Positions 1-52,750 of a DNA stretch of 64,000 nucleotides are shown here, one piece after another (the stretch's first letter is position 1; each line of letters starts with the position of its first letter). The notes under the pieces are model-generated. The model was given only the letters and a program-made list of their open reading frames with translations, was not told the origin of the DNA and ran no database searches. The translations under genes were made by a program, and so were the position numbers. The stretch is from an uncultured virus (IMG/VR IMGVR_UViG_3300050821_012144) (Duplodnaviria; Heunggongvirae; Uroviricota; Caudoviricetes). The stretch lies in IMG/VR virus record IMGVR_UViG_3300050821_012144; one strand, written 5' to 3'.

Positions 1-335
1 GGGGAAATGCGGATTCCTAGCCGCAAAACCTCCTGTCCCGAGAGCTGCTTAGCCACAAGCTGCACCTGATCTCGCGTGGTTGGGGCCACCGCAGAAAAAC
101 TCGCATCTAAGGCCGTTAGCGCTTCGCCAACGAAGCCTTGTCCCATTTGGGTAGCCTGCGCACGTGCGCGCTCTAAGATGAACCTCCACATGGGGGGCTC
201 CTGAACCAGCGCCCGACTCACGACCCTAAGCAGGCTGAGGCCCGCGTTATCCACAAACTTGCCACTAGTGTCTGCAGTCTTGGCCCGCAGTGTATGTGTG
301 TACTCGGGGCTGCCTAATCGACTGCGTCTACGCAT
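1..335 (-). CDS. Hypothetical protein running off the window edge; begins MRRRSRLG-SPE (LG tag); not in ORF track
   Basis: Translated by hand: open from ATG at 335 to position 1; TGaTATGCT extended -10 lies 7 nt upstream. Confidence 0.7.
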   Translation of the reverse strand, partial: MRRRSRLGSPEYTHTLRAKTADTSGKFVDNAGLSLLRVVSRALVQEPPMWRFILERARAQATQMGQGFVGEALTALDASFSAVAPTTRDQVQLVAKQLSGQEVLRLGIRIS

Positions 336-354
336 GGTTATTAGCATATCATAG

Positions 355-370
355 GATCGCTAGAGCGATC
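355..370. promoter_or_regulatory. 16-bp palindrome GATCGC-TAGA-GCGATC
   Basis: Exact motif, intergenic, 3 nt from the extended -10 (343-351, minus strand). Confidence 0.8.
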
Positions 371-375
371 ACTAG

Positions 376-639
376 TCACTTTCGTGTACGCGATCTAGTT
401 CGTTTATACCCTAACCCGGAATCAACAGAGCGACAAAAGGATATGCCACGTTCACGACTGACCGTTGCTTCGAAATCCTTGACCATTTCAGGTGACAGCG
501 TACGAGCCCCTGACTTATTTGCTGTGTAGCGCCACCCTGCCCGTCCTTTGGTTTCTGCTACACTCGTAACATATGCCGGACGATGGCTACCGAGGTCTAC
601 TCGCCAGCATATGAATCTGGGACCTGCAGCACGCTTCAT
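376..639 (-). CDS. Small basic protein with Arg-rich C-terminus
   Basis: Follows 646-1074 by 6 nt on the same strand; ends KRTRSRTRK. Confidence 0.55.
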   Translation of the reverse strand: MKRAAGPRFICWRVDLGSHRPAYVTSVAETKGRAGWRYTANKSGARTLSPEMVKDFEATVSRERGISFCRSVDSGLGYKRTRSRTRK

Positions 640-645
640 TGAAGA

Positions 646-1074
646 TTACTTGAAAGAGTCACGGCCAGTAAGGTACTTAATGACTGTCAACGTCGCTACA
701 ATCGCAATTGAAGCCGCTGAGATTGTCTGGAGAAATGTTTGGGTACGCTCTATTTTATTTAATCGATGCAGCTCTTCAGTGCTTGATCGATCGTGCCTGC
801 TATAGCCCCCGCCTCCGCCACATCCTCCACTACAACCTAATTGGCTGCCGTAGTACCAACCTTCACGCACTGGTGTATATTGTAAATCTACGCTTGCCTC
901 AAAATCGTTTGGCACATCTCCAAAACAACCGCCCAAGATCTGAGGTTTGATTGGTGGAACAGCAGGAAGGGTATTTCTTGGATACGGCATGTACATACCG
1001 TACGGGACTATTTCATGTTCATAGTCCGCGCCGTTGAGACTCCGTTGTGCTTCGTTTACTGTAATGCCTAGCAT
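646..1074 (-). CDS. Putative virion membrane protein, C-terminal TM helix
   Basis: Hydrophobic ISAASIAIVATLTVI near the C-terminus; MLG, CFG-D and QLG motifs. Confidence 0.65.
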   Translation of the reverse strand: MLGITVNEAQRSLNGADYEHEIVPYGMYMPYPRNTLPAVPPIKPQILGGCFGDVPNDFEASVDLQYTPVREGWYYGSQLGCSGGCGGGGGYSRHDRSSTEELHRLNKIERTQTFLQTISAASIAIVATLTVIKYLTGRDSFK

Positions 1075-1075
1075 A

Positions 1076-1570
1076 TTAGTAGCCCTTCCGACGATTAGCT
1101 ACACCAGCGACAATCGCTGCAGCAACTGTACCGACAGTCAGCCCTCCTAACAGCGATGTCCAGAACGCAATTCTGTGCAACGACTTTTGGGCAGCCCTTT
1201 GGCTGCCGGCAAGCATCCATAGTGCAGCCGTAGCGTCATCATCAGACGGCATAGCACCGTTGGAGCCGTCTGGGCCTCGTAGGGTAGCGTTATATTTGCC
1301 ATTGGCGCCTTGAGTAAGTCTTACAGTAGCTGTACCAGGTAGACCGTAAGGTCTGCCTGTCATCCAAGCATCGCCTTCATGGATCAAACCTAATCCTGAT
1401 CCCTTTAGATTGGACGGTGTTGCATAAGGATCATAGTGCGTACCTAAGTGCTTACCCAAAATATTGGGAGGTCCGCCACCTGGCCCGGGAATATTGATAG
1501 TCATAGTACCAGGCGCGACACCGACTTTTTCTGCGAACCGGACAGCCGGTGTGCGAGTGGCTTGCAACAT
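1076..1570 (-). CDS. Putative virion membrane protein, C-terminal TM plus RRKGY
   Basis: TM helix then basic tail; TGaTATGCT 6 nt before ATG. Confidence 0.7.
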   Translation of the reverse strand: MLQATRTPAVRFAEKVGVAPGTMTINIPGPGGGPPNILGKHLGTHYDPYATPSNLKGSGLGLIHEGDAWMTGRPYGLPGTATVRLTQGANGKYNATLRGPDGSNGAMPSDDDATAALWMLAGSQRAAQKSLHRIAFWTSLLGGLTVGTVAAAIVAGVANRRKGY

Positions 1571-1611
1571 GTCACTAGCATATCATGCTAGTGAGGCGAT
1601 AAGACACTCAA

Positions 1612-2493
1612 TTAATAACTGCGGCGACGCCCAAATGCAGCTGTAGGCTTCTTACGCATCAAGAAATAGCCGCCGATGACAACCACACCTGCTGCAGCAA
1701 TCAGGATCGTTTTGTTTTGATACCACGGAACCGTAGTTACTACAGGAGTAGCGATTGCGGGCGGGTAATAAGGCAGTTGTGGAGCATACGTTGGAGGGTT
1801 ATATGCTGAAGGATTATATGTTGGCGGAGCGATGATTGTATTGGTTGAGTATGGAGGTGGAGATGGTGAAGACGGTGGAGTAGGTGCAATTATGGTGTTA
1901 GTGGAATAGGCTGCACCGCTTGAGTCTGTAGCACTCGAACCGTCATCGGTAGTAGAACCATCGCTTGTTGAACCATCACTTGTTGAACCATCACTGGATC
2001 CATCACTGCTTGTAGTTGTGGTTGAGCCGTTGCTTGTATTAATCGGTGCAGGCGGAGACGTAACAGGTCCAGTAGACGGCCCCGATTGAACTGGTATGCT
2101 GACAATGGGTGTCCATGTCGCTGGCGCTGGCGCGGGTGAGGACGGTGGACCGTATTGTGTGGTATAGCCACTGGGTGCTGGCACCGGGTTGTATTGTGCA
2201 GTATACCCAGATGACGGTGCTGGATTGTATTGTGCGGTATAACCTGCAGAATTAGTACGTGCGATCAACGATCCACTTGCAGGCGTGGTGCTGAAACTTG
2301 TCGATCCAGGCAATAATGTAGCGCCAAAGTTGGCGCCGAAGTTGGAGAGATTAGACCACATTGGCTGAATGAACGCAGGCGTCACATTTACTGGCGTTCG
2401 AGATAGTGGACTAGGGCTGTATGGATTTTGAATGGCTACAGGCGAAGTAGAAACCGCCGGTATAGTTCCACCTGCACGTGTAGCGAAAATCAT
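1612..2493 (-). CDS. Ser/Thr/Pro-rich C-tail-anchored membrane protein
   Basis: Low-complexity body with GYTAQY repeats; VPWYQN-TM-RKKPTAAFG-RRRSY; NFG-ANFG near the N-terminus. Confidence 0.75.
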   Translation of the reverse strand: MIFATRAGGTIPAVSTSPVAIQNPYSPSPLSRTPVNVTPAFIQPMWSNLSNFGANFGATLLPGSTSFSTTPASGSLIARTNSAGYTAQYNPAPSSGYTAQYNPVPAPSGYTTQYGPPSSPAPAPATWTPIVSIPVQSGPSTGPVTSPPAPINTSNGSTTTTSSDGSSDGSTSDGSTSDGSTTDDGSSATDSSGAAYSTNTIIAPTPPSSPSPPPYSTNTIIAPPTYNPSAYNPPTYAPQLPYYPPAIATPVVTTVPWYQNKTILIAAAGVVVIGGYFLMRKKPTAAFGRRRSY

Positions 2494-2535: not shown

Positions 2536-2886
2536 TTATTTCTTCATGAGTAGATACGCTGCACCTATTCCAACAACGGCAATGCCAATCAGATAGGTCG
2601 TGTTCTGATACCAAGGAACTGTTACCGGCAACAATGGTGGTGTATATAATGGTGCTGGCGGATATAACGATGGTGCAGGGAAAGGTGACGACGGGAATGT
2701 TGCCGGTAATGGTGCTGGTGGATACACGGGCGGTGGTAGCACTGGCGGTGTATAGGGCGATGGAATAACAGTCTGATTGGTACTACCAGGTGGTGTGGTT
2801 TGTACCGATATACCGGTGTTAGCGCCGTATGTATAGCCGGTACTAGTATTGTACTGCGCCGTGTCGTTAGTCGGTATATACATCAT
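2536..2886 (-). CDS. Pro-rich C-tail-anchored membrane protein, paralog of 1612-2493
   Basis: Shared TVPWYQN-TM-MKK end. Confidence 0.75.
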   Translation of the reverse strand: MMYIPTNDTAQYNTSTGYTYGANTGISVQTTPPGSTNQTVIPSPYTPPVLPPPVYPPAPLPATFPSSPFPAPSLYPPAPLYTPPLLPVTVPWYQNTTYLIGIAVVGIGAAYLLMKK

Positions 2887-2914
2887 GATTGAACTATCTT
2901 AACATCGTCACGGT

Positions 2915-4285
2915 CTACTTACGTTGTCTATTTTTTCGTATGATGACAATCACAGCGGCACCAAAAACACCGAGACCAAGCAAGACAAGGGAGTTGATGG
3001 AAGTTGCCGCTACGGGTGTAGTTGGAGGGGGAAACGGTAAAGACGGATATGGTAAAGGTGAAGGTAAATATGGCGGCGGTTGTGTTGTGGCGTCATATAC
3101 CTGTGCACCTGTTTGAAATATTTGACTATTAATCGGTAAAGTTGTGGGTTGCGCAGCCTTTGGAACTAGCAAAACATCAGCTAAACAAGTTAGCGCCAAT
3201 ACAACACCGGCTATCTGTGCTCCAGGAATTAACGCCATGATTGGTCCAGCGCCGCATGCAAGTTTGGCTATAAAGTCAAAAGCGCCTAAAAGAGAGTCTC
3301 CAACACGTTGCCACCATGTGGGGTCTTCATGGTTTAATTGAAGGTATATTAAGGAGCCGTCAGTGCTAACGGCAGCCTTAGCGTCCCACCAACTATTGGT
3401 AGTGCTACCGCCTACTTGTACACCTGTATCAGTTAGCAATCCCATAATCTTTCCAATATAACCGTTGCCACAGTCGCACGGCATAATGGTGTTGACCGAA
3501 ATATACCCACCGCCAATGGATACCCCGCCAGCGGCAGCTTGCTCGGAGATAGGAAAACCGCCACGAGCAAGCCAGGCATTATAGCCGCCACTATTCGTCA
3601 ACTCGGCTGCGGTCGGCTGAATAGGTAGATTATGAAATCCAGGGCGATTATACTGGAAGTCAGGTACTAATTTCTGAGCGTCTTGAATAGACAGTTGAGT
3701 AATAATCGAGTTGACGGTCTGTCGACCTATTGTACTAGCAACACCCGTTGACACTGAACCTGCGCTAGACATTGCTGTAGCCGCATTGGTTATAGCGTCA
3801 TTGATACTCTTCGCTGATGTTTGAATAATAGCGTATTCAATAAATATTCGTTGATCGTCTGATGGTGTAAAATTACGTGCAAATTCTCCGTTGTTGATAA
3901 CCTCACCGACAAAGAATGGGACATTGTAAAAGGTAAATATGCCTGGAATAGCCGTGGCATCCAAAAGATATCCGCCTGAACCGCACGCATTGGAAGGGAT
4001 ATTTGGAGAAGTACAGCTAGGAAGACTGCCAGGTGTTATTTTAACTGGACACGCCATCGTAGCCATACCTGCGGATGTACCGCAGACTGCAGCGCCTGGG
4101 GCCATTGTGAGATTAACTGCAAGAGTAGGTGCTAGATTTGAACCCGTCCATGGCACAAGCGGGCCGTCAAGCACCTTCCACGGAAACATGAACGCGTCTA
4201 GATTAGACAGCGTCCAGTAAATCGTGGCGTTAGTCGAAACCGAAGCATTATATACAGCTGTAGTGGGTGCATTCGGTCTATACAT
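2915..4285 (-). CDS. Cys-containing membrane protein with C-terminal TM segments
   Basis: 456 aa; internal hydrophobic hairpin, Pro linker, TM plus RKNRQRK; TGaTACGGT 6 nt before ATG. Confidence 0.75.
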   Translation of the reverse strand: MYRPNAPTTAVYNASVSTNATIYWTLSNLDAFMFPWKVLDGPLVPWTGSNLAPTLAVNLTMAPGAAVCGTSAGMATMACPVKITPGSLPSCTSPNIPSNACGSGGYLLDATAIPGIFTFYNVPFFVGEVINNGEFARNFTPSDDQRIFIEYAIIQTSAKSINDAITNAATAMSSAGSVSTGVASTIGRQTVNSIITQLSIQDAQKLVPDFQYNRPGFHNLPIQPTAAELTNSGGYNAWLARGGFPISEQAAAGGVSIGGGYISVNTIMPCDCGNGYIGKIMGLLTDTGVQVGGSTTNSWWDAKAAVSTDGSLIYLQLNHEDPTWWQRVGDSLLGAFDFIAKLACGAGPIMALIPGAQIAGVVLALTCLADVLLVPKAAQPTTLPINSQIFQTGAQVYDATTQPPPYLPSPLPYPSLPFPPPTTPVAATSINSLVLLGLGVFGAAVIVIIRKNRQRK

Positions 4286-4320: not shown

Positions 4321-4959
4321 TTAGCTTTTCTTAGTAGCTAGATAGATAGCGCCACCAACTAGCAAACCGCCAAACAATAAATAAGTCGGGTTCGAATACC
4401 ACGCTGCCGCTACCGGTGCAATATAGCCCGGAGTGCCTGGTAGTGCTCCTGGGAGTGCTCCTGGAATCGCGCCTGGGGCTGCTGCACACTGGCCGGTGAC
4501 AGGATTTACTGTCAGGCCGACAGCACACGCTCGGTTACCGATAGGGCTGATTGGTTGGTTTACCGCGCCTGGATAACCTGCAGGAGGAACAGCTTGAGAC
4601 GCTGCATAGGCATTGATGCCTGCCGTAATTGCGCTATAGGCATTAGCAGTACCTGCACCTGGAGGCGGCGGATAACCGCCACCTGCGCCATAACTCGGTG
4701 GATAGTAGTTTGAATAGCTAGATGGAGGATAGGTGCCGCTAGAATAAGAGCTGCTGCCTGCAGAACTGGTCGTTGGATCAGGCGGCATACTGTTGATTGC
4801 CGACATTGTAGCGTAGTAGTCATTTACTTCGCCAATGCAGGTTGCATCACCGTTACAAGCCGCAATCTCTGATGTCTGATCGCCGAAGGAGCCGAGCATG
4901 GTCGGCATACGTCGTGGCCCACCCAGTAACGAGGGCGAGATCATGTGTGCTTGTAGCAT
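4321..4959 (-). CDS. Pro/Gly/Ala-rich C-tail-anchored membrane protein
   Basis: MLG-SFG-DQ leader; AWYSNP-TM-KKS end. Confidence 0.75.
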   Translation of the reverse strand: MLQAHMISPSLLGGPRRMPTMLGSFGDQTSEIAACNGDATCIGEVNDYYATMSAINSMPPDPTTSSAGSSSYSSGTYPPSSYSNYYPPSYGAGGGYPPPPGAGTANAYSAITAGINAYAASQAVPPAGYPGAVNQPISPIGNRACAVGLTVNPVTGQCAAAPGAIPGALPGALPGTPGYIAPVAAAWYSNPTYLLFGGLLVGGAIYLATKKS

Positions 4960-5014: not shown

Positions 5015-5085
5015 TAGGTCCTATATCAAGAGTGTACTGAAGTTTTAGGGTTATGTCTAGGTATAGTCGTGATACGCTATTATTT

Positions 5086-5868
5086 ATGAGCGGCGATATG
5101 ATTCTGTTCGGTGACTCGTTTAATGGCTGGTCGCAGGATAGGAAATGGGCTGTTGGTCTTGCTACAGTAGGTGGAATCCTGCTTGCTGCGGGTGCCTTGA
5201 CGTACGTTATGGCGAAAAGACAGGAACAGCAGAACGGTTTTGGCCGAGGCAAGTTGCCTAAGTCAACGTCAAGGACGCGCATTGGTGGAATGACACTGAC
5301 ACACCATTATGACCCGGACATGCCGGTAGAGAAGCGAGTAGCATTACTCCAAGGCTTAGTTTGGAAGGGCGTGCAGAACCCTCAAATGCGCCATCTAGCT
5401 TTGGCTATTACAGGCAAGGGTACACGAAAGGTCAAAGTTGGCAGTCAGACTTTTGTAGTAGAAGGTGCAAACTGCCCTGCTCGTGATGGCCTTTGTGAAA
5501 CTCAAGCTATCTATGATTGGGTTAGAGAAAATATTCGTTACTCCGGGGACGTGGCACCGATAAAACTTCCTAACGGAAATGTTGAAGGTGTAGATTTATT
5601 TCAAAGCGCGAAGCGTTCGAGTGAATTCGGCGCAGGCGACTGTGATGACCATTCTGTATTAAGTGCAACCTTGTTATCGTTAAACGGTATCCAAGGACGG
5701 TTCAGGGTAACTGCACCAGATAAAAACAGCGATTGGCAACATATATACACGACAGCTTTACTACCGAAAAATAATCCATCGCGTGCAGTAGCCCTAGATA
5801 CTACACTACCAGGCAATTTCTTTTCGCGAGAGGCGCCGTTCGCCAAAAAACTTGACTTTGATGTTTAG
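5086..5868 (+). CDS. Membrane-anchored transglutaminase-like cysteine protease; candidate virion maturation protease
   Basis: IYDWVRENIRY, GDCDD (Cys), WQHIY (His), ALDTT (Asp); N-terminal TM; start moved to ATG 5086, 7 nt after TGaTACGCT. Confidence 0.8.
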   Translation: MSGDMILFGDSFNGWSQDRKWAVGLATVGGILLAAGALTYVMAKRQEQQNGFGRGKLPKSTSRTRIGGMTLTHHYDPDMPVEKRVALLQGLVWKGVQNPQMRHLALAITGKGTRKVKVGSQTFVVEGANCPARDGLCETQAIYDWVRENIRYSGDVAPIKLPNGNVEGVDLFQSAKRSSEFGAGDCDDHSVLSATLLSLNGIQGRFRVTAPDKNSDWQHIYTTALLPKNNPSRAVALDTTLPGNFFSREAPFAKKLDFDV

Positions 5869-6981: not shown

Positions 6982-6983
6982 TT

Positions 6984-7181: not shown

Positions 7182-7184
7182 GGT

Positions 7185-7632: not shown

Positions 7633-7905
7633 TCAGGGCTTCTTTCCGTACTTGCCACGAAAGTGTTCGAGCACGTCTTTAGGTAGAAAACGAATCCGCT
7701 TCCCTACCGTGAAGTGCGGAATGTCGGTTAGGTTACGTCTAATCGTAGCCGGACTGACACGCAAGAAATTAGCGATCTCCTTTGGAGACATTGGACGATC
7801 GACAGTAACAGGTGGAGTAGCGACCGGCGGCACAGCAATTGGCTTAATTGCCGAAACAGCCGCTTCACCAAGGCCAGTTTTCTTAGGAGGAACCCGAGGA
7901 GGCAT
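7633..7905 (-). CDS. Excisionase-like (MerR-type) helix-turn-helix DNA-binding protein
   Basis: MSPKEIANFLRVSPATIRR...IPHFTVGKRIRF pattern. Confidence 0.75.
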   Translation of the reverse strand: MPPRVPPKKTGLGEAAVSAIKPIAVPPVATPPVTVDRPMSPKEIANFLRVSPATIRRNLTDIPHFTVGKRIRFLPKDVLEHFRGKYGKKP

Positions 7906-8048: not shown

Positions 8049-8058
8049 ATATAGAGTA

Positions 8059-9184: not shown

Positions 9185-9252
9185 ATCAACATTTTTCTTA
9201 ACGCCGAATAAGGCGGTCACTCACAATCACAATGATCAAAGGAAAGAAACAA

Positions 9253-10179
9253 ATGAAGAAGCAAGCGACCCTGGGTGACGCCGACGGGCAGTTCGGCGAA
9301 ACCGATTTTTTCGGACTCGATGAGTTCGGCCTACCAACCTCACGTGAGGCTCACGGTGCCCTTATCGGCGCTGGCGTTGGTGCCATTGGCACCATCGCTG
9401 TCCAGAAGTACAGTGCTCCGGGCAGCAAGCTGCGTCGGTACGCTGAAGGCGTTGGCATGATTGCTGGCGTAGCGGTCGGTGGCGCCATGATGCTCAAGGA
9501 GTCGACTAAGTCGATGGGCTATGCGGCTGCGATGACAGCGCTGGTCGCTAACGGACTTCGTCAAGTCAATAACATGCTTTTCCCGCAGAAGTATGCCGTT
9601 GCTGACCTTCAGAATATGATGGCTTATGCAACGTCGGCTGGTGGTGGATATGTTGACCCGCTCAACTATGCTGCACCTGCTTACGCAGCACCAATGCCAG
9701 TAACGGTTGCCCCAGCGTACACCGCTCCGGCACCGGCACCGGCTGGATACACCACTCAGGCTGCATTGCCGGCTGCTACTGGCGCAAGCGCAAGCGCGGG
9801 TACAGCGTCGAGCACGACTTCGACCGGTACCAACCAGACCGTGACCACGACTTCTCCAGCAACTTCGGGTTGGGGCGGCACCGTGATCAACCCAGCGTAC
9901 CGCGCTGGTCGTGGCGGCTTTGGTATCCACGCGATCGAGCCTGGCTACAATGTTCCAGGTGGCGGCTTCGGCACCCCAGTGATCCAAAAGGCATTCCCTG
10001 TTGCGTCTCCTGGATTCGGCGCTGCAATGAAGCGTAGCGGTCCCCCAACGTTGGTTGGCGCTGGTGACTACGGCCTCGGCCGTAATCCAGGTGTGAGCCA
10101 GCTTGGTCGTCTTGGTGGCCCAGCCATCAGTGCGATGGGCGCTCACTTCGGTAGCACCCTATTTGGAGCCAATGGTTAA
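9253..10179 (+). CDS. Candidate major membrane/scaffold protein with many FG/LG motifs
   Basis: Purine-rich RBS, biased codons, three hydrophobic helices, over 12 hydrophobic-Gly motifs at both ends; directly upstream of the putative MCP. Confidence 0.7.
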   Translation: MKKQATLGDADGQFGETDFFGLDEFGLPTSREAHGALIGAGVGAIGTIAVQKYSAPGSKLRRYAEGVGMIAGVAVGGAMMLKESTKSMGYAAAMTALVANGLRQVNNMLFPQKYAVADLQNMMAYATSAGGGYVDPLNYAAPAYAAPMPVTVAPAYTAPAPAPAGYTTQAALPAATGASASAGTASSTTSTGTNQTVTTTSPATSGWGGTVINPAYRAGRGGFGIHAIEPGYNVPGGGFGTPVIQKAFPVASPGFGAAMKRSGPPTLVGAGDYGLGRNPGVSQLGRLGGPAISAMGAHFGSTLFGANG

Positions 10180-10286: not shown

Positions 10287-11042
10287 ATGGGAGCAGTAGG
10301 CGTAGCACCATCAACCACAACCCTCACCCTGCCGGACGGTTCCACGATCGCCCTGGCAGACTGGATCGACGACAAGCTTTACGGTTGCGTCCAGTTCACC
10401 AACGGCCAGACCACGCCTCTCCAGGCGTACAGCTCGGGTCGTAGCCAGTCGATTCCTGGCGGTACTCGTGTACAGACTCGCGTTGATACGAACATCCCGC
10501 GTAACGGCGACTCCGGTCTCCCCAAGGACTGGGAAATGCTAGTTTACGGCTGGGGTATCCAGATCGTTCGCATCATGCGTGGTCCTGACACCTCGAACAC
10601 AGCCCCAACCTTGGTCGACTCGTTCGCGACCGGTTTGACTGCGCCTCTCGTCACCAACGGTCAGGTGACTCCGTGGGCACTGTCTGACCCGCCGCTGTTG
10701 GCCACCCTGTTCCAGATGGACCGTGTTGTATTCTTCCAGTATGAATACAATGCCAAGTTCTACACCCAGGGCGTCCTTCAGGACTTCCCCCAGGGACACG
10801 GCTACTATGTTGGTTCGACCAACACGTCGTTCGAGTACGCGCAGCTTGGTCTGCCATCGCCGCGTGACCGCGTAGCCCTCGTGCTACCTGTACACGAACG
10901 TGAAAATCTCGGGTATACCGGCACTTTCCAGCCTGAGGCCGCTGTAAAGATCATCCAGGCAGCATCAGATGGTTCGACCGCACTCAACTTCGCTGACGTA
11001 AAATTGTACAAGTACGGATTGATTAAGCGCACGGTTGTCTAA
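10287..11042 (+). CDS. Putative major capsid protein, jelly-roll type
   Basis: Strong RBS, marked C-ending codon bias, followed by a terminator, beta-rich 251 aa with DTN..NG..GLP...MLVYGWGI; fold is inferred. Confidence 0.55.
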   Translation: MGAVGVAPSTTTLTLPDGSTIALADWIDDKLYGCVQFTNGQTTPLQAYSSGRSQSIPGGTRVQTRVDTNIPRNGDSGLPKDWEMLVYGWGIQIVRIMRGPDTSNTAPTLVDSFATGLTAPLVTNGQVTPWALSDPPLLATLFQMDRVVFFQYEYNAKFYTQGVLQDFPQGHGYYVGSTNTSFEYAQLGLPSPRDRVALVLPVHERENLGYTGTFQPEAAVKIIQAASDGSTALNFADVKLYKYGLIKRTVV

Positions 11043-15002: not shown

Positions 15003-15587
15003 ATGGCCTTTTCTGATGATGCCTTCGGCCGCCTTGCTCTAACTGACTACAAGAAATTTGTTCCTGTAGTCGCCCAAGCTTATTTGGCCCGGCCGCTGTT
15101 TGAGGAAGACGCGACACCGTCTTGGTTGGCGCTTCAAGCCAGCACCGACCGGCTATTTCGTCAGATGTCGCGTAAGGTCAATGTTATATTTACGTCTAAA
15201 GATCCATACCCAGATTTTGAGACGATGAAGCATGACATCGAGACGAACCACAAAATGCTAGTCTGGACAGGTGCCAGCGATCACCAGGTCTGGACGCCCA
15301 AAGAGAATCACCGATTTCGTGCTGTACACGATTACATGATTCACTTGGCCGGCGGGCATCCGTTTACCCTACGCGGTGAAATGGGCGCCTACAATCGACA
15401 CGTCAAGCTTGCACCACCAGTGGCGCGATTAGCTTTGTTCGTTGAGATAGTCGCTCAGACATGTACTTTCTTGTATCTCGACAATCAGTTCGGCGAGCAG
15501 AAAGTCTGCGAGCTATACGGTTTTGATTTCGTGAACGTAGGGCTGTGGGATGAAGACTACTACGGGCTCAATTTCGATGATCAATAA
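15003..15587 (+). CDS. Hypothetical protein with NHRFRAVHD...H motif and N-terminal DAFG tag
   Basis: 194 aa; His/Asp/Glu cluster suggests metal binding; TACACT 8 nt before ATG. Confidence 0.6.
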   Translation: MAFSDDAFGRLALTDYKKFVPVVAQAYLARPLFEEDATPSWLALQASTDRLFRQMSRKVNVIFTSKDPYPDFETMKHDIETNHKMLVWTGASDHQVWTPKENHRFRAVHDYMIHLAGGHPFTLRGEMGAYNRHVKLAPPVARLALFVEIVAQTCTFLYLDNQFGEQKVCELYGFDFVNVGLWDEDYYGLNFDDQ

Positions 15588-15820
15588 TAGTTCCCGAATC
15601 CTGCACACGGTCGACTAACCAACTGTTGCTGGCCGTTTGGCAGTGTCACTACGTATTGACACATTTGCGTCTCATCAGAAACAATTAACACATCAGGGCC
15701 CTCATCAATCCACCCTGGATAGGATCCGCCATGACCGTGTCCGCCACCACCATGATGACCGCCACCGCCGTGTCCTCCACCGTGGCCAAAACTACCGCTG
15801 AGCATCGTTATAGCAAGCAT
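15581..15820 (-). CDS. Small Gly/His-rich protein with SFG and GFG tags
   Basis: TGgTAAACT 7 nt before ATG; ends CAGFG-NYY. Confidence 0.6.
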   Translation of the reverse strand: MLAITMLSGSFGHGGGHGGGGHHGGGGHGHGGSYPGWIDEGPDVLIVSDETQMCQYVVTLPNGQQQLVSRPCAGFGNYY

Positions 15821-19628: not shown

Positions 19629-19868
19629 ATGGCTGATCGATTTGTAGTAACGGGCCCTGCTGGATTTCCTCGGGCCTACCATACTAAATTCCCGGACGCG
19701 TTAAAGGCGGTTCAGAAATGTTCCGCTAAGCACCCTAACGCTATCTGCACGATTAGCCGAGGTCTACCAGGTCTACAGCGGCCGGTAATGGAATGTGCCA
19801 GGTCCGAATGCTACACGGTTGAAGGCGGGATGGGTAGACGGCGTAAGCGTAGCCGTAAGCGACGTTAA
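19629..19868 (+). CDS. Small Cys-containing protein ending GGMG-RRRKRSRKRR
   Basis: Leaderless-type promoter; tag plus Arg tail. Confidence 0.7.
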   Translation: MADRFVVTGPAGFPRAYHTKFPDALKAVQKCSAKHPNAICTISRGLPGLQRPVMECARSECYTVEGGMGRRRKRSRKRR

Positions 19869-45239: not shown

Positions 45240-45300
45240 CGGGGTTGAGACCTCGGGATAGGGGAAGGAGGCGTATCTAGAATAGCATACTTAACCTTGT

Positions 45301-45316: not shown

Positions 45317-45343
45317 CTTGCTATCCGTGTTATCATATTTGCT

Positions 45344-45445: not shown

Positions 45446-45460
45446 CGAAGGGAAAATCAA

Positions 45461-45604
45461 ATGGTAAAGCATCGTAGTGCAGCTCAACGCGCGTGGCAGA
45501 CCAAATTCGGCCGCGCGGCCAAAATGTGTAAGGGTCGCAGTAAGCGGGCTCGTGCTTCGTGCATGAGTGCTGCGCTTGGTGGGCGTTCGCGTCGTCGGCG
45601 TTAA
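45461..45604 (+). CDS. 47-aa protamine-like protein; not in ORF track
   Basis: MVKHRSAAQRAWQTKFGRAAKMCKGRSKRARASCMSAALGGRSRRRR; RBS; paralog of the next gene. Confidence 0.7.
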   Translation: MVKHRSAAQRAWQTKFGRAAKMCKGRSKRARASCMSAALGGRSRRRR

Positions 45605-46030: not shown

Positions 46031-46357
46031 ATGCATACATCATTCATAATCTCGATGGGGTTGTTCTGTATGATCATCGTCGTTGCCTCGATTTGGCAAC
46101 GTTGGTGGTGGCGCAAGAACCATCATCAAACTGCCGAGTTTGATCACATGCTCACTGAACAAGCGCTGGCTATTCAAGCACACCATCAACGCCGTTATGG
46201 TCAACCGTCTGATGTCATACAGACACTAGTGAACACGTCAAATGGGTTAGCTAAGAACGGTGTCAAAAACGGCGTTCACGGGAAAACTTCTCGAAGCGAC
46301 GCAACGCAACCTGATAGTCCTATAGCGCTCAGGTCAATCGGCAAAGGAGTTCGATAA
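46031..46357 (+). CDS. N-terminal TM protein
   Basis: FIISMGLFCMIIVVASIW; coupled to neighbours. Confidence 0.55.
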   Translation: MHTSFIISMGLFCMIIVVASIWQRWWWRKNHHQTAEFDHMLTEQALAIQAHHQRRYGQPSDVIQTLVNTSNGLAKNGVKNGVHGKTSRSDATQPDSPIALRSIGKGVR

Positions 46358-46863
46358 TGTTGGCAGCAGCACGTATTCTTGGAGATGGATCCGATGGTAA
46401 TTACGATTCCGAAAATTGGCCATCTTCTAACGGATATAGCCACCGTCGTGGCCATTGGGGCCATAGATTAGCTGCTGTCGGTGTACCTGCTGCAATTATC
46501 GGCGGTGCGCTTACAACGCTGACATTTGGGGTCGCATTCAAGCTAGCCAAGACCGAACGTGCATGGACGCCTGCACTGTTTCTAGGCGGTATTACGGCGC
46601 TCGCAGGGCTTGTTAAGCTTGCTCACTGTGCTAACAACTATGGGCAGGCCGACGGTATAGCTGTACAGGCTGCAGCGCCAGGTATGACGGTTGTAACCAC
46701 GCCAGATAGTGCAGCTACTGCTTATAATACGCCTGCCACACCGGTAGCCGTTGTAACTACGCCCATTGCACCAGATGATAACTATGACGATGGATCAGGT
46801 GACTCGTCAGGTGACTCGTCTGGTGATGGTTCGTTCGGTCGAGTATTAGCCTATTGGCGATAG
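46357..46863 (+). CDS. Two-TM membrane protein with ILG-D and SFG-R tags
   Basis: Two hydrophobic helices; acidic Gly/Ser tail. Confidence 0.7.
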   Translation: MLAAARILGDGSDGNYDSENWPSSNGYSHRRGHWGHRLAAVGVPAAIIGGALTTLTFGVAFKLAKTERAWTPALFLGGITALAGLVKLAHCANNYGQADGIAVQAAAPGMTVVTTPDSAATAYNTPATPVAVVTTPIAPDDNYDDGSGDSSGDSSGDGSFGRVLAYWR

Positions 46864-47890: not shown

Positions 47891-48235
47891 TTAAAAGGCT
47901 GAGTTCGGGTATCGCATCTCTCGGGCGGCAATATTCAATAGCCAAATTACTTGGCTATCTGGGACGGCACCGTCGACGCGAATCATACCTGCTGGCTTGC
48001 GTAGTACAAACGTAGCAGGAACGCCTTGAACGTTGAGTCGATTGGCCAGAGACTCAAATTTAGGGTCGTTGGCATCAGCCATAACGATCGGTACTAGATC
48101 GGCGTATGGAGCAGCTAATTTCTGGAATCGCGGTTTGAAATCTATACAAAAATGACACCCTTTTAGGGTAAACATTACAACTACGACAGGCGATTGATCG
48201 AGTACTTGCTCGCTAGGCATACGGAACTGCGCCAC
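47891..48235 (-). CDS. Thioredoxin-like protein
   Basis: VVVMF...GCHFC..FKP.F, NVQGVPATF. Confidence 0.8.
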   Translation of the reverse strand: MAQFRMPSEQVLDQSPVVVVMFTLKGCHFCIDFKPRFQKLAAPYADLVPIVMADANDPKFESLANRLNVQGVPATFVLRKPAGMIRVDGAVPDSQVIWLLNIAAREMRYPNSAF

Positions 48236-48328: not shown

Positions 48329-49432
48329 ATGATTTTCTCGACTAAGGTCGATAGCCAAACCGTTAATGGCTACGCTACGCGAGTCGGCCCGAGCCCCGGT
48401 ATTAATGCGTACGGTTACCGTGGACAATTCGGGTCATTTAGCGCTGCTGCATTTCAATGTCAAAACGAAGCAGGTTTCTTGATTTGTCGGCCACTGTCGA
48501 CGTTTCAAGCAAATCATGGGCTCGTACCTCAGGCTACGGCCGAAGGCAATCAAGCTGAGCAGACTGTCTACCAGATGCAACAAGCGGTCGATCAGGCACT
48601 AGCTGCTATCGCTGCAGCGCAGCAGCAGTATGGCATGGCCGATCCGGCAGCGCTTGCTGCAAAATTAGGTATCCCCGCGGGCACACCAACGCTAGGGACT
48701 TTTCCGCTACTCAACAGTGCCGCAGGCGGCTACGACGGTGTCGTCAGTGAAGGTACTCACTCTTGGACGATTCTCTGTCTCGACGTCCTAGCCAACCTGC
48801 AGCCGCTAGATGCGACCCTGCAACAGGCTATGCAGGACGGCTCGGTAACGATGATTGCCCAGATGTCACCAGAAATCCTGGCGTACTTGCAGCAAGTCAC
48901 GCCACAGATTCCTACTCTAGTCAGCCAATTCGTTGCAGGTCAACTTCCAGGCAATGAGCCTGAACTGCCACCACAAGTAAGTGCGACGGCTACTGACAGC
49001 GGTAGTGCGGCACTACCTCCACCGCCCGACGGCTCTACACCGCTGCCTATCGATTCTTCGGGTGGTGTTGATATGTCCAATATCAATACATCAACTGGAG
49101 ACGGTTCTGGGGACGGTTCTGGTGATCAATATGCAACAGATAACTACCCTGTTGGCGGGGATCAGAGTGGCGGTTACGCGCCAACCGGATATGCACCAAC
49201 CGGATATGCACCGCAAGGTGGAGGTTACGCTCCCAGTGGTGTTGCGACAAGTTATGCAGCGCCTGGTGGAGCAGCGTATGCCGCTCCAGCAACCGGCTCC
49301 TACACGTGGCTATACCTAATCGGAGGTCTAGCAGCGCTTGGCGGAGTCGTTTACGTCGTAAAGAAACGGCGTGAACAAAAGCCGGCTGCCTTTGGCCATC
49401 GGTTTGGTCGTCGTTTTTCGAGAAGGGGTTAA
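48329..49432 (+). CDS. C-tail-anchored membrane protein
   Basis: GQFG-S leader; GYAP repeats; TM then KKRR...AAFG-HRFG-RRFSRRG. Confidence 0.75.
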   Translation: MIFSTKVDSQTVNGYATRVGPSPGINAYGYRGQFGSFSAAAFQCQNEAGFLICRPLSTFQANHGLVPQATAEGNQAEQTVYQMQQAVDQALAAIAAAQQQYGMADPAALAAKLGIPAGTPTLGTFPLLNSAAGGYDGVVSEGTHSWTILCLDVLANLQPLDATLQQAMQDGSVTMIAQMSPEILAYLQQVTPQIPTLVSQFVAGQLPGNEPELPPQVSATATDSGSAALPPPPDGSTPLPIDSSGGVDMSNINTSTGDGSGDGSGDQYATDNYPVGGDQSGGYAPTGYAPTGYAPQGGGYAPSGVATSYAAPGGAAYAAPATGSYTWLYLIGGLAALGGVVYVVKKRREQKPAAFGHRFGRRFSRRG

Positions 49433-49435: not shown

Positions 49436-49987
49436 ATGATATCAGCAACTCTACAAGACAGCGTCGGGTTTGGGGACGAAACTAGTAGCGGCTTTGATGC
49501 CGTTGCGGCGTGCGTTGCTGGTGGGGGTTCTGCTGCAAGCTGCGCGTCCGCAGGACCAAACGTAGCATCATCTGCATCGGGATTCAGTCCAGGCTTCGAT
49601 CCTGTAGCTGCATGTGTTGCCGGTGGAGGGTCACAAACATCTTGTACACAAGGCATAAACTTTACGCCCACTGCAAGTGGGTCAGGGTTTACTCCTGGGT
49701 TTGACCCCGTTGCGGCATGTATCGCTGGTGGAGGTTCTGCAGCTTCCTGTGGCCAGATCAATACCAGTGCAGGTGGAGCCGCAGCTACACTAGCCTCGAT
49801 GGGAATAACATCTGGAGCAACGCCAGGTATTACAACGAGTTCTACGGGAATGGTATTTGGCCTTATTGCGGCTGGGGTTGCGATAGCAGCAACTGCAGTA
49901 ATATTGATGAAGCATAATAAGCAGCAAGCGTCTCGAACGGCTGCATTTGGACGCCGTCGTCGGAGATATCCAAGGTTCTATAAATGA
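49436..49987 (+). CDS. C-tail-anchored protein with three Cys-paired repeats
   Basis: GFD.VAAC.AGGGS..SC x3; VGFG-D leader; AAFG-RRRRR tail. Confidence 0.75.
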   Translation: MISATLQDSVGFGDETSSGFDAVAACVAGGGSAASCASAGPNVASSASGFSPGFDPVAACVAGGGSQTSCTQGINFTPTASGSGFTPGFDPVAACIAGGGSAASCGQINTSAGGAAATLASMGITSGATPGITTSSTGMVFGLIAAGVAIAATAVILMKHNKQQASRTAAFGRRRRRYPRFYK

Positions 49988-50283
49988 ACGCTACCGAAAT
50001 CGTTCCACCGCCAATGCGTCGTGCGTATGATGAGCAGCGCATTTATAGTAACGTGTATGGCAACGATAGCTATTCGTATATGTATGACCCCAACGTCTAT
50101 TACGTTGGATTTGGACCGCAGGGCTTTGGCGATGCAACGGCAGCAACGACATCTCTATTTGGACTTAGCACAACCACATTGTTAGGTGGAGGGGCGATAT
50201 TAGCTATCGGTATCGGCGTGTGGATGGCTAAAAGGGCTGCTAAAAAATCGGGATTGGGTCGGCGTAGGCATAGACGACGTTAA
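49984..50283 (+). CDS. Small C-tail-anchored protein
   Basis: VGFG-PQGFG-D, TM, SGLG-RRRHRRR. Confidence 0.75.
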   Translation: MNATEIVPPPMRRAYDEQRIYSNVYGNDSYSYMYDPNVYYVGFGPQGFGDATAATTSLFGLSTTTLLGGGAILAIGIGVWMAKRAAKKSGLGRRRHRRR

Positions 50284-50363: not shown

Positions 50364-51656
50364 CTAGCTGTTGTAGAGCGCCTTGACTAGACCAATAATC
50401 ACGTCTGTAGCCTTATCCATGCCTTTCTTGATTGCATCGATAACATCGTCCTCAGTTGGACCTGCTGGGGGAGGCGGCGTCGGTGTTGGAGTTGGAGTCG
50501 GTGTTGGAGTTGGAGTCGGAGTTGGCGTCGGATCTGGCGTAGGCGTCGGATCTGGCGGAGTTGGCGTCGGATCTGGTGTAGGTCCCGGAGCTGGTGGCGT
50601 TGGCGCTACAGCGTTACCGCTAATCGCAGCTACCAATAAATTGCCAATCGGTGCTCCTAGGCCTGTACACGGGTCGGGCCCAACAGCGGCCTTGAACGCG
50701 CCATTATCGCCACTCGTGATATCGGTAAAGCAATTCGGGTTTGCCCAAATTGTCGCTCCGATATTAGCGCCTTTCTTAGTTCCTGCTGCAGCAGCAAGAC
50801 CAGCATACAACGGCGCAACCGCACTCGTACCGCCAATTATCTGTTGGCTACCGTGAAAGAAAATCTGATACCCTGTGTTTGGATCGGCGTCGGCAGCGAC
50901 ATCAGGCACCATACGGCCATTGTTAGGTCCCGCGGGTGCGCCTGTCATCCAGGCTGACATCTGAAACAACGTAGAATAGCCGCCACCGGTACCTTCACCG
51001 TTGCTTTGGCCAGGATTGTTATTCCAGACCGACTCAGCAGTAGAAGTCTTGTTTGTACCACCGCAGCCTATTACGTGCGGCGCCGAGGCAGGAAGGTCGA
51101 CGTTAGCTGCGCCGGGGCCGCCGTCACTGGAGTCGTTATCGCCAGCAGCCGCAAATACAATCACGCCTGCAGCATTGGCTTCCTGGGCAGCTGCTTCCAT
51201 GTCATTGGCTGCCGTTGCACCCCATTGAGCTTCATCCGCACCCCAACTGATAGAGATAACATCGCAACCGTCAGCTACCGCCTTGCGCACAGCGCTAGCG
51301 ATATCTTGTGACCAATAAACCCGGATATTAGCCGGCTGGTTCGTAGCTGCAAAGTAAGCCGCAGCAGCGACTTCGATATCGAGTGCTACTTCACCATCTG
51401 CACTATTGGGGCTAGGGTCGGGGGTATTAACAGTCGTGTCTACAGAGACATCTGTGACTGTTGGCATCGGTTGGCTGATAGATGAGAAAAAGGCTTGTAG
51501 ATCAGAGGCCACCCAGCCTCCACCAAGCTCGACAATGCCGATAACTCCGCCACCAGCTAATCCAGTAGGCCAATTATATGCAGCACAAAGCGCGGGAACT
51601 GTCCAAGAACCGTCACTCGCTGCACGCGGTTTATAATACGGTTTTATGTTTGACAT
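50364..51656 (-). CDS. S53 (sedolisin/kumamolisin-like) peptidase lacking the prodomain, with PT linker
   Basis: EVALDIE (Glu/Asp), ISISWG, AAGDN, RMVPDVA, GGTSAVAP (Ser), CTGLG. Confidence 0.85.
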   Translation of the reverse strand: MSNIKPYYKPRAASDGSWTVPALCAAYNWPTGLAGGGVIGIVELGGGWVASDLQAFFSSISQPMPTVTDVSVDTTVNTPDPSPNSADGEVALDIEVAAAAYFAATNQPANIRVYWSQDIASAVRKAVADGCDVISISWGADEAQWGATAANDMEAAAQEANAAGVIVFAAAGDNDSSDGGPGAANVDLPASAPHVIGCGGTNKTSTAESVWNNNPGQSNGEGTGGGYSTLFQMSAWMTGAPAGPNNGRMVPDVAADADPNTGYQIFFHGSQQIIGGTSAVAPLYAGLAAAAGTKKGANIGATIWANPNCFTDITSGDNGAFKAAVGPDPCTGLGAPIGNLLVAAISGNAVAPTPPAPGPTPDPTPTPPDPTPTPDPTPTPTPTPTPTPTPTPTPPPPAGPTEDDVIDAIKKGMDKATDVIIGLVKALYNS

Positions 51657-51673
51657 GCACCCATAATACCATT

Positions 51674-51689
51674 GATCGATATAACGATC
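51674..51689. promoter_or_regulatory. Degenerate palindrome GATCG-N6-CGATC
   Basis: 2 nt from TGgTATTAT (minus) before the S53 gene. Confidence 0.6.
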
Positions 51690-51701
51690 AGTGGGGTATT
51701 T

Positions 51702-51938
51702 TTACCGACTGCGCCGACGACGGCGGGGGACCTTACGCAGCTTTACAAAACTCCCGCTAGGAGTCACAGCCTTGTAGCTAGTGTGCTTACCGTTCTTTGT
51801 CGGGCATACCTGAACTCGGCCAGTAACGGCAGACTTCAATCGATAAGACTTACTGCCGATCTTGATTGTACCGGACTTAGCCGAATAGCTCTTACACTTC
51901 GTCCATGTCTTACGGTATCTACGCTTTCTTCTTGCCAT
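51702..51938 (-). CDS. Very basic small protein, candidate DNA-condensing protein
   Basis: MARRKRRYRK...PRRRRRSR; TGaTAGATT 6 nt before ATG. Confidence 0.7.
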   Translation of the reverse strand: MARRKRRYRKTWTKCKSYSAKSGTIKIGSKSYRLKSAVTGRVQVCPTKNGKHTSYKAVTPSGSFVKLRKVPRRRRRSR

Positions 51939-51991
51939 GTTTCAAATCTATCATGATAGTAGCCAGTAGTGCGTGGTAAAATACATAGACT

Positions 51992-52198
51992 ATGGCAATT
52001 AGGAAGTATCATGAGACCTACGTAGGCACTAAATGTCGAGTACGGATTTGTCGCGACTCGGATACCAAGGAATACATCGTAAAGGTTATGGTGAGAAATC
52101 GAGTCCGCGGTAGCTATTTCGCGAGCGACAAACAAGACGCACGGCAGACGGCCGCACACGAGATCCGGTGGCTGAGGAAGCATCAGCGTTGTAGTTAA
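51992..52198 (+). CDS. Small basic hypothetical protein
   Basis: TGgTAAAAT 9 nt before ATG. Confidence 0.6.
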   Translation: MAIRKYHETYVGTKCRVRICRDSDTKEYIVKVMVRNRVRGSYFASDKQDARQTAAHEIRWLRKHQRCS

Positions 52199-52213
52199 AG
52201 GGCTTTTTTTTTT

Positions 52214-52489
52214 ATGAAAAAGAAACCGATTTGGTACGAAAGCGCTAAACGACATGCCTACCAGGCTTGGGTAGGTAATAATTGCGCGGTAGCGATTTTG
52301 CCGGAGAAATATGAGTGGCGTTGGCGTGTCGGCACTGGAGATTTGACGTCTACACCTGAACCATTCGACCCTGCTAGCAGAGTAGCCAAAGAAGGTGTCG
52401 TAAAGACCCGCGAAGCAGCTAAACGTGCAGCTTTGAAGGCGGCAGCTAAGACTTGTCCAATCGGACCACGACGAAAGCGAGCCAGGTAG
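52214..52489 (+). CDS. Small basic hypothetical protein
   Basis: Ends CPIG-PRRKRAR. Confidence 0.55.
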   Translation: MKKKPIWYESAKRHAYQAWVGNNCAVAILPEKYEWRWRVGTGDLTSTPEPFDPASRVAKEGVVKTREAAKRAALKAAAKTCPIGPRRKRAR

Positions 52490-52750
52490 ATGGCAGTCGT
52501 GGTAACGCACCCGAGTTGTGCTAAAAGCTCGCGGTTTACCCGCGGTGGACTGATGGTCACGGGAGGGCTACTTATGGGAGGTGCACTAGTAGCTTTAGTG
52601 CAGGCTATGAACAATTCTGCCCGACAGCAGCAGAATCTACCGCCTTTGACCTTTTCTGAGACCCTCGGCCAAAGTCCGTTGCTGTTAATTGTGCCTCCTC
52701 TAGCCACTATACCGATAGCGCTTTGGCTAGCAGTCGACCCCCAATGTTGA
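52490..52750 (+). CDS. Small two-TM membrane protein
   Basis: Two hydrophobic helices with Cys near both termini, like 6337-6603. Confidence 0.6.
   Translation: MAVVVTHPSCAKSSRFTRGGLMVTGGLLMGGALVALVQAMNNSARQQQNLPPLTFSETLGQSPLLLIVPPLATIPIALWLAVDPQC

Follow-up and report, generated by a model that had tools for sequence, protein, structure and literature searches.

Hydrophobic-glycine joints at protein ends and a membrane-tethered transglutaminase-fold enzyme in a clade of large uncultured viruses

The window analysed here is a stretch of 64,000 nucleotides from an uncultured bacterial virus (IMG/VR record IMGVR_UViG_3300050821_012144); it is a piece of a genome of roughly 229 kb, and the virus belongs to a clade of 80–230 kb viruses. 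Roughly 12–14 of the proteins encoded in the window are marked near their ends by a tag in which a hydrophobic residue is followed by glycine ([FLM]G), and these tags are real and conserved in relatives. Next to genes of tagged membrane proteins lies that of an enzyme of transglutaminase fold (5053-5868, plus strand), which is held by a single transmembrane (TM) helix and carries the same joint beside it. The most likely mechanism, put forward tentatively from sequence comparison, is that this enzyme would be a maturation protease cutting after the glycine of the joints.

The first-pass annotation of this DNA had reported the dipeptide on over 20 unrelated proteins. All the strings it quoted that we looked for are present where it had placed them, and a subclass of the size given above is indeed tagged; the figure of over 20 was an overstatement. 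Occurrences were counted in the 68 open reading frames (ORFs) within positions 1-52750 and compared with 2000 per-protein shuffles.

[FLM]G overall: observed 212, expected 193.8 (z 1.5, not significant)
FG alone: observed 95, expected 57.8 (z 5.3)
LG alone: observed 95, expected 104.7 (not enriched)
MG alone: observed 20, expected 25.4 (not enriched)
Proteins with [FLM]G in the first 60 residues: observed 36, expected 31.0 (p 0.12)
[FLM]G sites in the first 60 residues: observed 61, expected 43.7 (p 0.01)
[FLM]G[DE] in the first 60 residues: observed 9, expected 2.9 (p 0.0035, pattern chosen post hoc)
[FLM]G plus two basic residues in the last 20 residues: observed 5, expected 0.15 (z 12.6)

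Against shuffled controls the C-terminal joint is enriched and [FLM]G overall is not. On the window counts alone, the C-terminal part of the observation is therefore solid, whereas the N-terminal part is weak. The pattern had been described as absent from the genes at 53-64 kb, which is correct: the 25 ORFs beyond 52.7 kb hold 30 [FLM]G against 29.4 expected, and 0 C-terminal sites. About half of the N-terminal sites listed earlier are at chance level, whereas those in the subclass of proteins starting with M[LI] are enriched (see below). The listed sites at 335(-), 15003(+), 27858(-) and 46870(+) occur at chance density and have no homologue among the relatives examined; the ORF with the quoted string RRRSRLG-S runs off the left end of the window.

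The genes that carry the joint, or stand in the same cluster, are as follows (a slash marks the joint).

646..1074, minus strand: tail-anchored protein (C-terminal TM), starts MLGITVNEAQRSLNG; a QR[ST][IL]NG leader is conserved in orthologues
1076..1570, minus strand: tail-anchored protein with a 15-residue ML leader ending in KVG, then VAPGTMT
1612..2493, minus strand: tail-anchored protein with a MIFATR start and a Pro/Ser/Thr-rich stalk; after the TM helix RKKPTAAFG/RRRSY (FG codons 1630-1635)
2536..4285, minus strand: two tail-anchored proteins (2536-2886 and 2915-4285) without ML start and without FG-Arg tail
4321..4959, minus strand: tail-anchored protein with a MLQAHM leader, MLG-SFG/D at residues 22-26
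5053..5868, plus strand: the enzyme, TM helix at residues 28-60 in the structure model
5107-5112, plus strand: LFG/D (F19-G20) before the TM helix of the enzyme
5239-5247, plus strand: linker joint F63-G64-R65 of the enzyme
5641-5643, 5740-5742 and 5797-5799, plus strand: catalytic triad C197, H230 and D249
7633..7905, minus strand: HTH_17/excisionase-like protein, N-terminal basic run followed by GLG/E
9232..10179, plus strand: FG-rich conserved protein with 14 [FLM]G; N-terminal TLG/D..QFG/E..FFGLDEFG and C-terminal GAHFGSTLFG, both kept in relatives
10287..11042, plus strand: 251-aa protein, the most conserved of the clade (60-82% identity), starts MGAVG/VAPSTTT
15581..15820, minus strand: 79-aa His/Gly-rich protein, starts MLAITMLSGSFG/H and ends AGFG/NYY
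19629..19868, plus strand: small Cys-containing protein, ends GGMG/RRRKRSRKRR; the orthologue of a relative ends GALG/KRRRRRRRKARK
45461..45604, plus strand: 47-aa basic ORF, ends ALG/GRSRRRR
46357..46863, plus strand: two-TM protein, starts MLAAARILG/D and ends GSFG/RVLAYWR
48329..49432, plus strand: tail-anchored protein with a MIFSTK leader, GQFG/S at residue 34, a TM helix, then KKRREQKPAAFG/HRFG/RRFSRRG; founder of a family of 50 members
49436..49987, plus strand: tail-anchored protein, starts MISATLQDSVGFG/D; after the TM helix RTAAFG/RRRRRYPRFYK
49984..50283, plus strand: tail-anchored protein, VGFGPQGFG/D; after the TM helix KKSGLG/RRRHRRR

The terminal patterns were further counted in five genomes (the window and four relatives, 901 ORFs), where orthologues are counted repeatedly and the counts are not independent. 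A run of at least three R/K within the last 25 residues is found in 125 ORFs, and [FLM]G directly precedes it in 11 of these (background 1.1%, p 1.7e-7), a conservative count, each ORF having contributed its first run only. The residue at P3, which was not in the search pattern, is G, A, T or S at 27 of 36 non-redundant tail sites. Furthermore, the last 34 residues hold 28 instances of [AGST][FL]G[RK] where 8.4 are expected (z 6.6). In tail-anchored proteins the C-terminal joint lies 10–15 residues past the TM helix, after the first basic stretch.

The joint has a direction, which is the same at both termini, with the handle on the far side from the protein body. At the C-terminus, hydrophobic-Gly followed by a basic run was found 32 times against 18.1 expected (z 3.4), whereas the swapped order gave z 1.3; a basic run followed by Gly-hydrophobic was also raised there (z 3.0), for which one family with its KKPGF segment is largely responsible. 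At the N-terminus, [FLM]G comes within 8 residues after a basic run in 42 ORFs against 23.0 expected in local shuffles (z 4.2; 6 against 1.8 in the window), while the mirrored Gly-hydrophobic order gave z 1.7. One such protein is that at 7633-7905, in which the succession of basic run, LG and D/E/Q is kept in 4/4 orthologues.

Conservation in homologues, one of the checks proposed by the earlier reading, is borne out by the tail-anchored protein at 48329-49432. Comparison with its orthologues (three relatives and one metagenome protein) revealed that the A and G of A-[F/L]-G are invariant (5/5), and a second hydrophobic-Gly is retained right ahead of the conserved domain. A word-based search with this protein gave 2 matches only, and a profile search was used instead; run against 1.84 billion representatives clustered at 50% identity, it returned the family of 50 members, which keeps the joints. 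Among 41 members that look full-length, 30 start with M[LI] and 34 have [FLMY]G in residues 3-22. Within the last 30 residues, [FLMY]G[RKH] is found in 18/47, typically as P-A-F/L-G-R-R-R, and 23/47 end in W, F or Y, often as …PRGW or …LPEG.F, with or without a Gly-Arg tail. On one side of the joints lie variable basic handles or leaders, on the other the conserved protein body. A homologue search for a 79-aa basic-tail protein gave no candidates.

The N-terminal leaders are a property of the tail-anchored class, defined here as proteins with no hydrophobic segment at the N-terminus that end in a single TM helix and a short basic tail. There are 8 such proteins in the window and 63 in the five genomes; their N-termini are polar (MLQATRTPAVRF, MIFSTKVDSQ and others). 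A start with M-L or M-I is found in 32/63 of them as compared with 107/838 other ORFs (Fisher 6e-12), and in the window alone in 6/8 against 9/78 (p 2.4e-4). Proteins with this start contain 86 [FLM]G in residues 2-31, where 42.7 are expected from shuffling whole proteins (z 7.1) and 54.4 from shuffling the terminal 30 residues only (z 4.9). For the tail-anchored proteins the corresponding count is 43 against 23.2 (z 4.2), whereas all other proteins gave 208 against 198 (z 0.75). GFG within the first 30 residues is found in 9/63 tail-anchored proteins versus 9/838 others.

Leaders of different length and kind end in the same way. The module VG/VAPxTTT stands behind an ML leader of 10–17 residues in the 1076-1570 protein and its orthologues and also forms the start of the 251-aa protein, so that the same module follows hydrophobic-Gly after leaders of differing length. 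The relatives' counterpart of the basic ORF at 45461-45604, about 100 aa long, has a short acidic/hydrophobic leader ending in FG or LG and then A-R-K-K-R. Ahead of the 47-aa ORF, as in a relative, there is another short ORF, which has a KNCCVR motif (45242-45604(+)). The two-TM protein at 46357-46863 has no homologue among the relatives examined. In the 81.5-kb relative, an SLT lytic transglycosylase (L027:5203-5985(-)) has an ML start and a C-terminal TM anchor and adjoins an M23 peptidase, which places cell-wall enzymes among the tagged membrane-anchored proteins.

The start codons on which these leaders depend are credible because of a hexamer, TANNNT, whose placement is typical of leaderless transcripts. 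It ends 4–9 nt before the ATG in 22/74 window genes as compared with 9.3% of other ATGs (p 6e-7), including several genes with an ML start (found e.g. upstream of 1570(-), 2493(-), 4285(-), 8059(+), 15820(-) and 48329(+)). A Shine-Dalgarno-like word is present in only 15/74 window genes. The sequence pattern suggests that many window genes have their own promoter and a leaderless mRNA.

The enzyme matches PF01841 Transglut_core over residues 144-233 (30.1 bits, cut-off 23, E 6.2e-7). Metagenomes contain 199 homologues of it, and among the 120 of these listed, most carry PF01841 in precomputed annotation and 108 have an N-terminal TM helix; [FLM]G follows the helix within 35 residues in 103/108 and precedes it in 45/108. 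The intact triad and the FG on each side of the TM helix (F19-G20, F63-G64), both noted in the first-pass annotation, were confirmed. C197, H230 and D249 are invariant in an alignment of 56 sequences, as are D196 and D198, and G64 is at least 90% conserved; the triad is also invariant in a comparison of 3 sequences. A consensus of 62 linkers has T, A or G at P3 (43/62), L (54) or F (8) at P2, Gly at P1 and Arg at P1' (35/62). As far as such consensus sequences can tell, the linker resembles the C-terminal tail sites, including the small P3 that had not been selected for.

The model of the enzyme has a pLDDT (predicted local distance difference test) of 90.4, and F63-G64-R65 lies in a linker of pLDDT about 66 before the first strand. 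The model leaves the fold certain as a papain-like/transglutaminase core. The matches of Foldseek were of transglutaminase type, as were those of a structure comparison of the model, given below.

3kd4, putative protease: 13.6
3isr, putative cysteine protease: 11.6
Factor XIII and transglutaminases 2/3: about 10.5
PeiP: 9.6
CPR-C4 protease: 9.3
LapG: 9.2

At the level of sequence, the profile of the enzyme family found nothing below E 0.07 among PDB sequences, the BTLCP Pfam model PF06035 did not match the enzyme at E <= 0.01, and Peptidase_C5 (adenain) had no match in the Pfam scan of the window.

The enzyme gene adjoins the cluster of tail-anchored genes in 9/9 loci, and the gene order around the tagged genes is kept between the window and its relatives. 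The flanks of the TM helix are charged in a similar way in both: the C-flank of the enzyme carries +3.3 versus +0.5 for the N-flank, in 91/96 homologues, and that of the tail-anchored proteins carries +3.1, in 46/63. By the positive-inside rule, the catalytic domain is thus predicted to lie on the cytoplasmic side, the same side as the Arg tails. The S8 peptidase at 50364-51656(-) was considered as the protease of the system and rejected: a six-frame search of 5 relatives did not find it, and 2 more lack it apart from a low-complexity match, so that it is present in this virus only among the relatives searched and is not part of the conserved system.

In the mechanism proposed here, a dozen or so proteins would consist of a body and a disposable end piece, which may be a short M-[L/I] leader, an N-terminal basic run or a C-terminal Arg run, each joined to the body via (small)-(Leu/Phe)-Gly. 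The enzyme, with its Cys-His-Asp triad and a one-helix membrane tether carrying the same joint, would act as the maturation protease, cutting after the glycine and stripping leaders and arginine handles during assembly of the particle; it could also free itself at the joint of its own tether. The invariant Asp on either side of the catalytic Cys would suit Arg at P1'. We infer the cutting of joints by the enzyme in the virion from the conserved tags, the enzyme's fold and triad and the synteny. Should the joints be cut, a maturation code would have been invented independently in a lineage in which all particle genes are unrecognised. (Small)-(L/F)-G beside a leader or an Arg run would then mark particle proteins in hundreds of metagenomic contigs, and the enzyme would be a compact protease, tethered to the membrane and sequence-specific, for which candidate substrates are defined. 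With uncut joints, too, the shared end tags define which viral proteins work together.

Several observations weigh against cleavage. The tail-anchored proteins at 2536 and 2915 are untagged, and are thus counter-examples inside the cluster. [AGST][FL]G[RK] is found 44 times in protein interiors against 30.8 expected; the depletion there that might be expected of a promiscuous protease, and that would have been a sign of one, is not seen. In the 48329 family the residues after the glycine are themselves conserved (…RRRxxPRGW), which suggests a tail that functions within the protein. A single-pass protein has its N-terminal leader on one side of the membrane and its C-terminal tail on the other, and one enzyme domain would hardly reach both. 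Cytoplasmic Arg tails would also require large N-terminal domains without signal peptides to cross the membrane. A glycine that follows a hydrophobic residue often serves as helix cap or hinge before disordered tails, the modelled fold alone does not fix the reaction and would also fit cross-linking enzymes and isopeptidases, and the multi-genome counts are inflated by shared ancestry.

The main rival, which is quite possible, is that the tags are functional and never cut. The Arg runs would be lasting handles for DNA or acidic lipids, the M-[L/I] leaders peptides that serve assembly or targeting and stay in place, and hydrophobic-Gly a helix cap or hinge, while the enzyme would cross-link particle proteins or act on the cell wall at entry or lysis. 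The conserved sequence after the glycine and the aromatic ends (23/47) of the 48329 family agree with this, as does the lack of interior depletion. The TM helices are rich in Gly/Ala (0.45 in the enzyme family), as in releasable anchors, and late proteins of the phage SSIP-1 (see below) are C-terminally anchored with no obvious joints. An uncut cap or hinge fits less well with the order of hydrophobic residue and glycine, which is the same at both termini and not mirrored, and with the small P3 shared by tails and enzyme linker. Neither does it account for the conservation of G64 in a linker modelled with low confidence. The strongly basic C-flank of the enzyme argues against export of its catalytic domain to the cell wall, and the complete relative has a separate M23 peptidase and SLT transglycosylase.

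An unlikely explanation is shared descent combined with low-complexity composition, in which tail-anchored paralogues kept both ends of one ancestor while their middles diverged, and FG/LG would be a by-product of Gly-rich, Phe-containing sequence and carry no signal. It is consistent with the enrichment of FG throughout the window proteins rather than at their ends alone, with the lack of independence of the five-genome counts, and with the cluster genes, which are adjacent and have common motifs before the TM helix (WYQN(T/K)T in the window, LP.YK..FW in relatives). However, the joint is present on unrelated architectures (the HTH protein, small Cys-rich soluble proteins, the enzyme and the 251-aa beta protein), shuffling of the terminal 30 residues only still leaves z 4.2–4.9, and among representatives at 50% identity the joints are fixed while their flanks turn over.

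Sortases, exosortases and archaeosortases are dedicated cysteine enzymes that read a cassette of C-terminal TM helix and basic tail on unrelated proteins; the motif of such signals precedes the TM helix, and the substrates carry signal peptides. The C-terminal motif, TM helix and basic tail of the viral proteins may likewise be a sorting signal, by which a host enzyme of the sortase, exosortase or rhombosortase type would anchor them to the host envelope. This is very improbable. The tripartite look is there, the C-terminus of the 48329 protein has a sub-threshold match to the Pfam LPXTG-anchor model (18.1 bits against a cut-off of 20), and motifs before the TM helix are conserved, though each is specific to its family. 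In contrast to sortase-type signals, the joint in the window follows the TM helix and the basic stretch, and the proteins are without signal peptide (an N-terminal hydrophobic segment is found in 0/63 tail-anchored proteins, though this is true by definition of the class). The same joint is furthermore found on soluble proteins and at N-termini, and the Pfam scan of the window contained no sortase-like family.

Pure chance, arising from a frequent dipeptide class picked at flexible positions, is the least probable reading: the overall and first-60-residue protein counts are near expectation and some of the listed sites lack a homologue by which to judge conservation, but it is already refuted for the C-terminal joint, with its z of 12.6 in the window and its conservation in homologues, and for the enzyme linker, with 103/108 among the homologues listed, and holds for a share of the listed N-terminal sites only.

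The proposed maturation protease has a single homologue among 50,697 GenBank phage records, gp34 of SSIP-1, in full Salisaeta icosahedral phage 1 (tblastn E 1e-5, 30% identity over residues 117-238; blastp E 3e-11). Two reports describe SSIP-1 as icosahedral and tailless, with a membrane inside the particle, T = 49 and a genome of 44 kb (PMC6356626, PMC6260650). Its gp34 is annotated as a structural protein, and since GenBank phages offer no other homologue, the window's virus plausibly has a virion that contains a membrane. Several late proteins of SSIP-1, verified structural ones included, end in a TM helix as well, and both genomes have a PAPS-reductase-like gene. The differences are considerable: the TM helix is C-terminal in gp34 and N-terminal in the window enzyme, the genomes are 44 kb and about 229 kb in size, SSIP-1 shows no evident ML leaders or Gly-Arg tails, and no other SSIP-1 protein is recognisably related to the clade. 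The SSIP-1 ATPase gp40 was found in 0/5 relatives at E <= 0.01, in a search that had no positive control.

A parallel in function would be the adenovirus protease (AVP, adenain; precursor substrates pVI and pVII), a viral cysteine protease that trims many particle and DNA-binding proteins at short hydrophobic/Gly sites. Its cut at IVGL/G releases an 11-residue basic C-terminal peptide, pVIc (PMC4246237). The pieces removed are leaders and basic peptides, as would be the case in the window. The adenovirus lineage also takes in membrane-containing phages (PMC6356626). In contrast to adenain, the window enzyme is of transglutaminase fold and membrane-tethered, with Gly at P1 and often Arg after it, and its candidate sites are conserved. 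It is possible, although doubtful in this full form, that the clade is a hitherto undescribed lineage of very large (80–230 kb) tailless membrane phages, remote from SSIP-1, in which a membrane-tethered transglutaminase-fold protease would cut (small)-(Leu/Phe)-Gly, clip loading leaders and poly-arginine DNA/membrane handles off at least a dozen unrelated proteins and release itself, convergent with adenain/pVIc.

LapG is a transglutaminase-type cysteine proteinase that cuts LapA between Ala108 and Ala109, just before Gly, leaving AGPS as the new N-terminus (PMC3032545). Both LapG of the BTLCP family (bacterial transglutaminase-like cysteine proteinases) and the window enzyme are Cys-His-Asp enzymes of transglutaminase type. 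LapG cleaves an anchored protein at a specific site close to that protein's end, and the small-residue site of LapG recalls the window tails, which read T-A-A-F-G. LapG is, however, periplasmic, soluble and controlled by LapD and c-di-GMP, whereas the window enzyme is viral, predicted on the cytoplasmic side and provided with many candidate substrates.

In phage T4, a short shared N-terminal capsid targeting sequence loads unrelated proteins and is then removed by the prohead protease gp21, a serine protease with L/I-x-E sites; T4 has neither membrane nor Arg tails. Scans of the window with Pfam and PHROGs found no gp21-like family. Adenoviruses, poxviruses and African swine fever virus are known to ripen by proteolysis at Gly sites, and phage T4 to load proteins by means of a leader. 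To our knowledge, there are no examples of either among membrane-containing phages, and a transglutaminase-fold protease features in none of these systems. A literature search, mostly outside subscription journals, found nothing relevant on transglutaminase-like enzymes in phage virions, on tail-anchored proteins of membrane-containing phages or on SSIP-1 together with transglutaminase.

The clade probably builds a membrane-containing particle, judging from the tail-anchored proteins and from head-tail genes being absent, although very divergent ones may be present. The 93 window ORFs (greedy ATG ORF calling; Pfam and PHROGs) matched no family of capsid, portal, terminase or tail-tube proteins. 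Capsid, portal and terminase were likewise absent from the 150 largest of 324 ORFs of the 196-kb relative (PHROGs), from 123/123 ORFs of the complete 81.5-kb relative (Pfam) and from 53 ORFs comprising those of at least 144 aa of the 81.5-kb relative plus two from L021 (PHROGs). Replication genes are plentiful in the relatives scanned in this way. PF05065 (HK97 capsid) was found in 0/5 relatives, with controls matched in 4/14, and PF09018 (PRD1 P3) in 0/5 with controls silent too. In the window and the 196-kb relative, matches of head-tail type are limited to fibre and tailspike-type domains.

The 251-aa protein is a capsid-protein candidate only. Its AlphaFold model is all-beta and of low confidence (pLDDT 45.4), and the Atlas search gave leads below 0.8 only, to PRD1 P2/P3 families, which is chance level. 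A Pfam scan at E <= 10 and a tblastn search against GenBank phages were empty, and hhalign of the family against 26 SSIP-1 proteins gave probabilities of at most 1.9%. An Atlas search with a conserved 328-aa protein gave no useful lead.

Using the transglutaminase-like protein and the 251-aa protein as queries, eight related IMG/VR contigs of 49-221 kb were identified. The 81.5-kb contig has terminal repeats and is rated complete, and those of 196 and 221 kb are rated 90-100% complete; contigs recorded with the window's transglutaminase-like protein reach 228,894 bases. A megablast of window positions 1-25000 against GenBank phages gave zero matches. The host is likely a bacterium of or near Gemmatimonadota, since a locus on the chromosome CP070815.1, a Gemmatimonadota metagenome-assembled genome, matches with 68% identity and adjoins ordinary metabolic genes. 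The related element there occupies about positions 6900-18500 of the locus, with an apparent border near its position 6.9 kb and part of the adjacent sequence masked; it is either a prophage or a binning or assembly join.

The remaining genes with a family match in the window (Pfam/PHROGs) are listed below, together with the Transglut_core protein and the S8 peptidase.

5053-5868, plus strand: Transglut_core protein, the enzyme
11355-12332 and 14154-14996, plus strand: HNH homing endonucleases
12329-14144: PAPS-reductase/DUF3440 and ParB pair
19972-22311, plus strand: VWA protein of 779 aa (PHROGs phrog_2426, E 6e-172)
35564-37084, minus strand: LAGLIDADG homing endonuclease with an HNH-like end
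39735-42674: pectate-lyase-type spike
47891-48220: thioredoxin
50364-51656, minus strand: S8 peptidase (Peptidase_S8, subtilase)

The three homing-endonuclease genes are dispersed between conserved genes, and the HNH gene at 11355 is copied elsewhere in relatives. The VWA protein at 19972-22311 is an unexpected tie to tailed phages: it has about 33% identity to proteins in 504 phage records, mostly Ackermannviridae-like and enterobacterial, and 53% in the 196-kb relative. A stand-alone cREC_REC (cyclic-phosphate-processing receiver) protein (17304-17714(+), E 6.6e-12) lies among structural-looking genes.

Four proteins, at 15870-17072(+), 17766-18911(+), 23261-23965(+) and 38568-39719(+), have a common N-terminal module of about 100 residues (…LKN.L.FTGL.VG.P.SLPHLLNV.G.P…) and unrelated C-terminal parts. 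All four match one homologue per relative, and they look like interchangeable receptor-binding proteins on a shared adaptor. A further paralogous set without family match (30115-31167(-), 31175-33097(-), 33127-33984(-) and 42678-44237(-)) has a common start, …NFQDVVVL…/…GVSFG…, and a common end, …ANYVRTGLSAL.QPG..L.GT; these are probably fibre or spike proteins.

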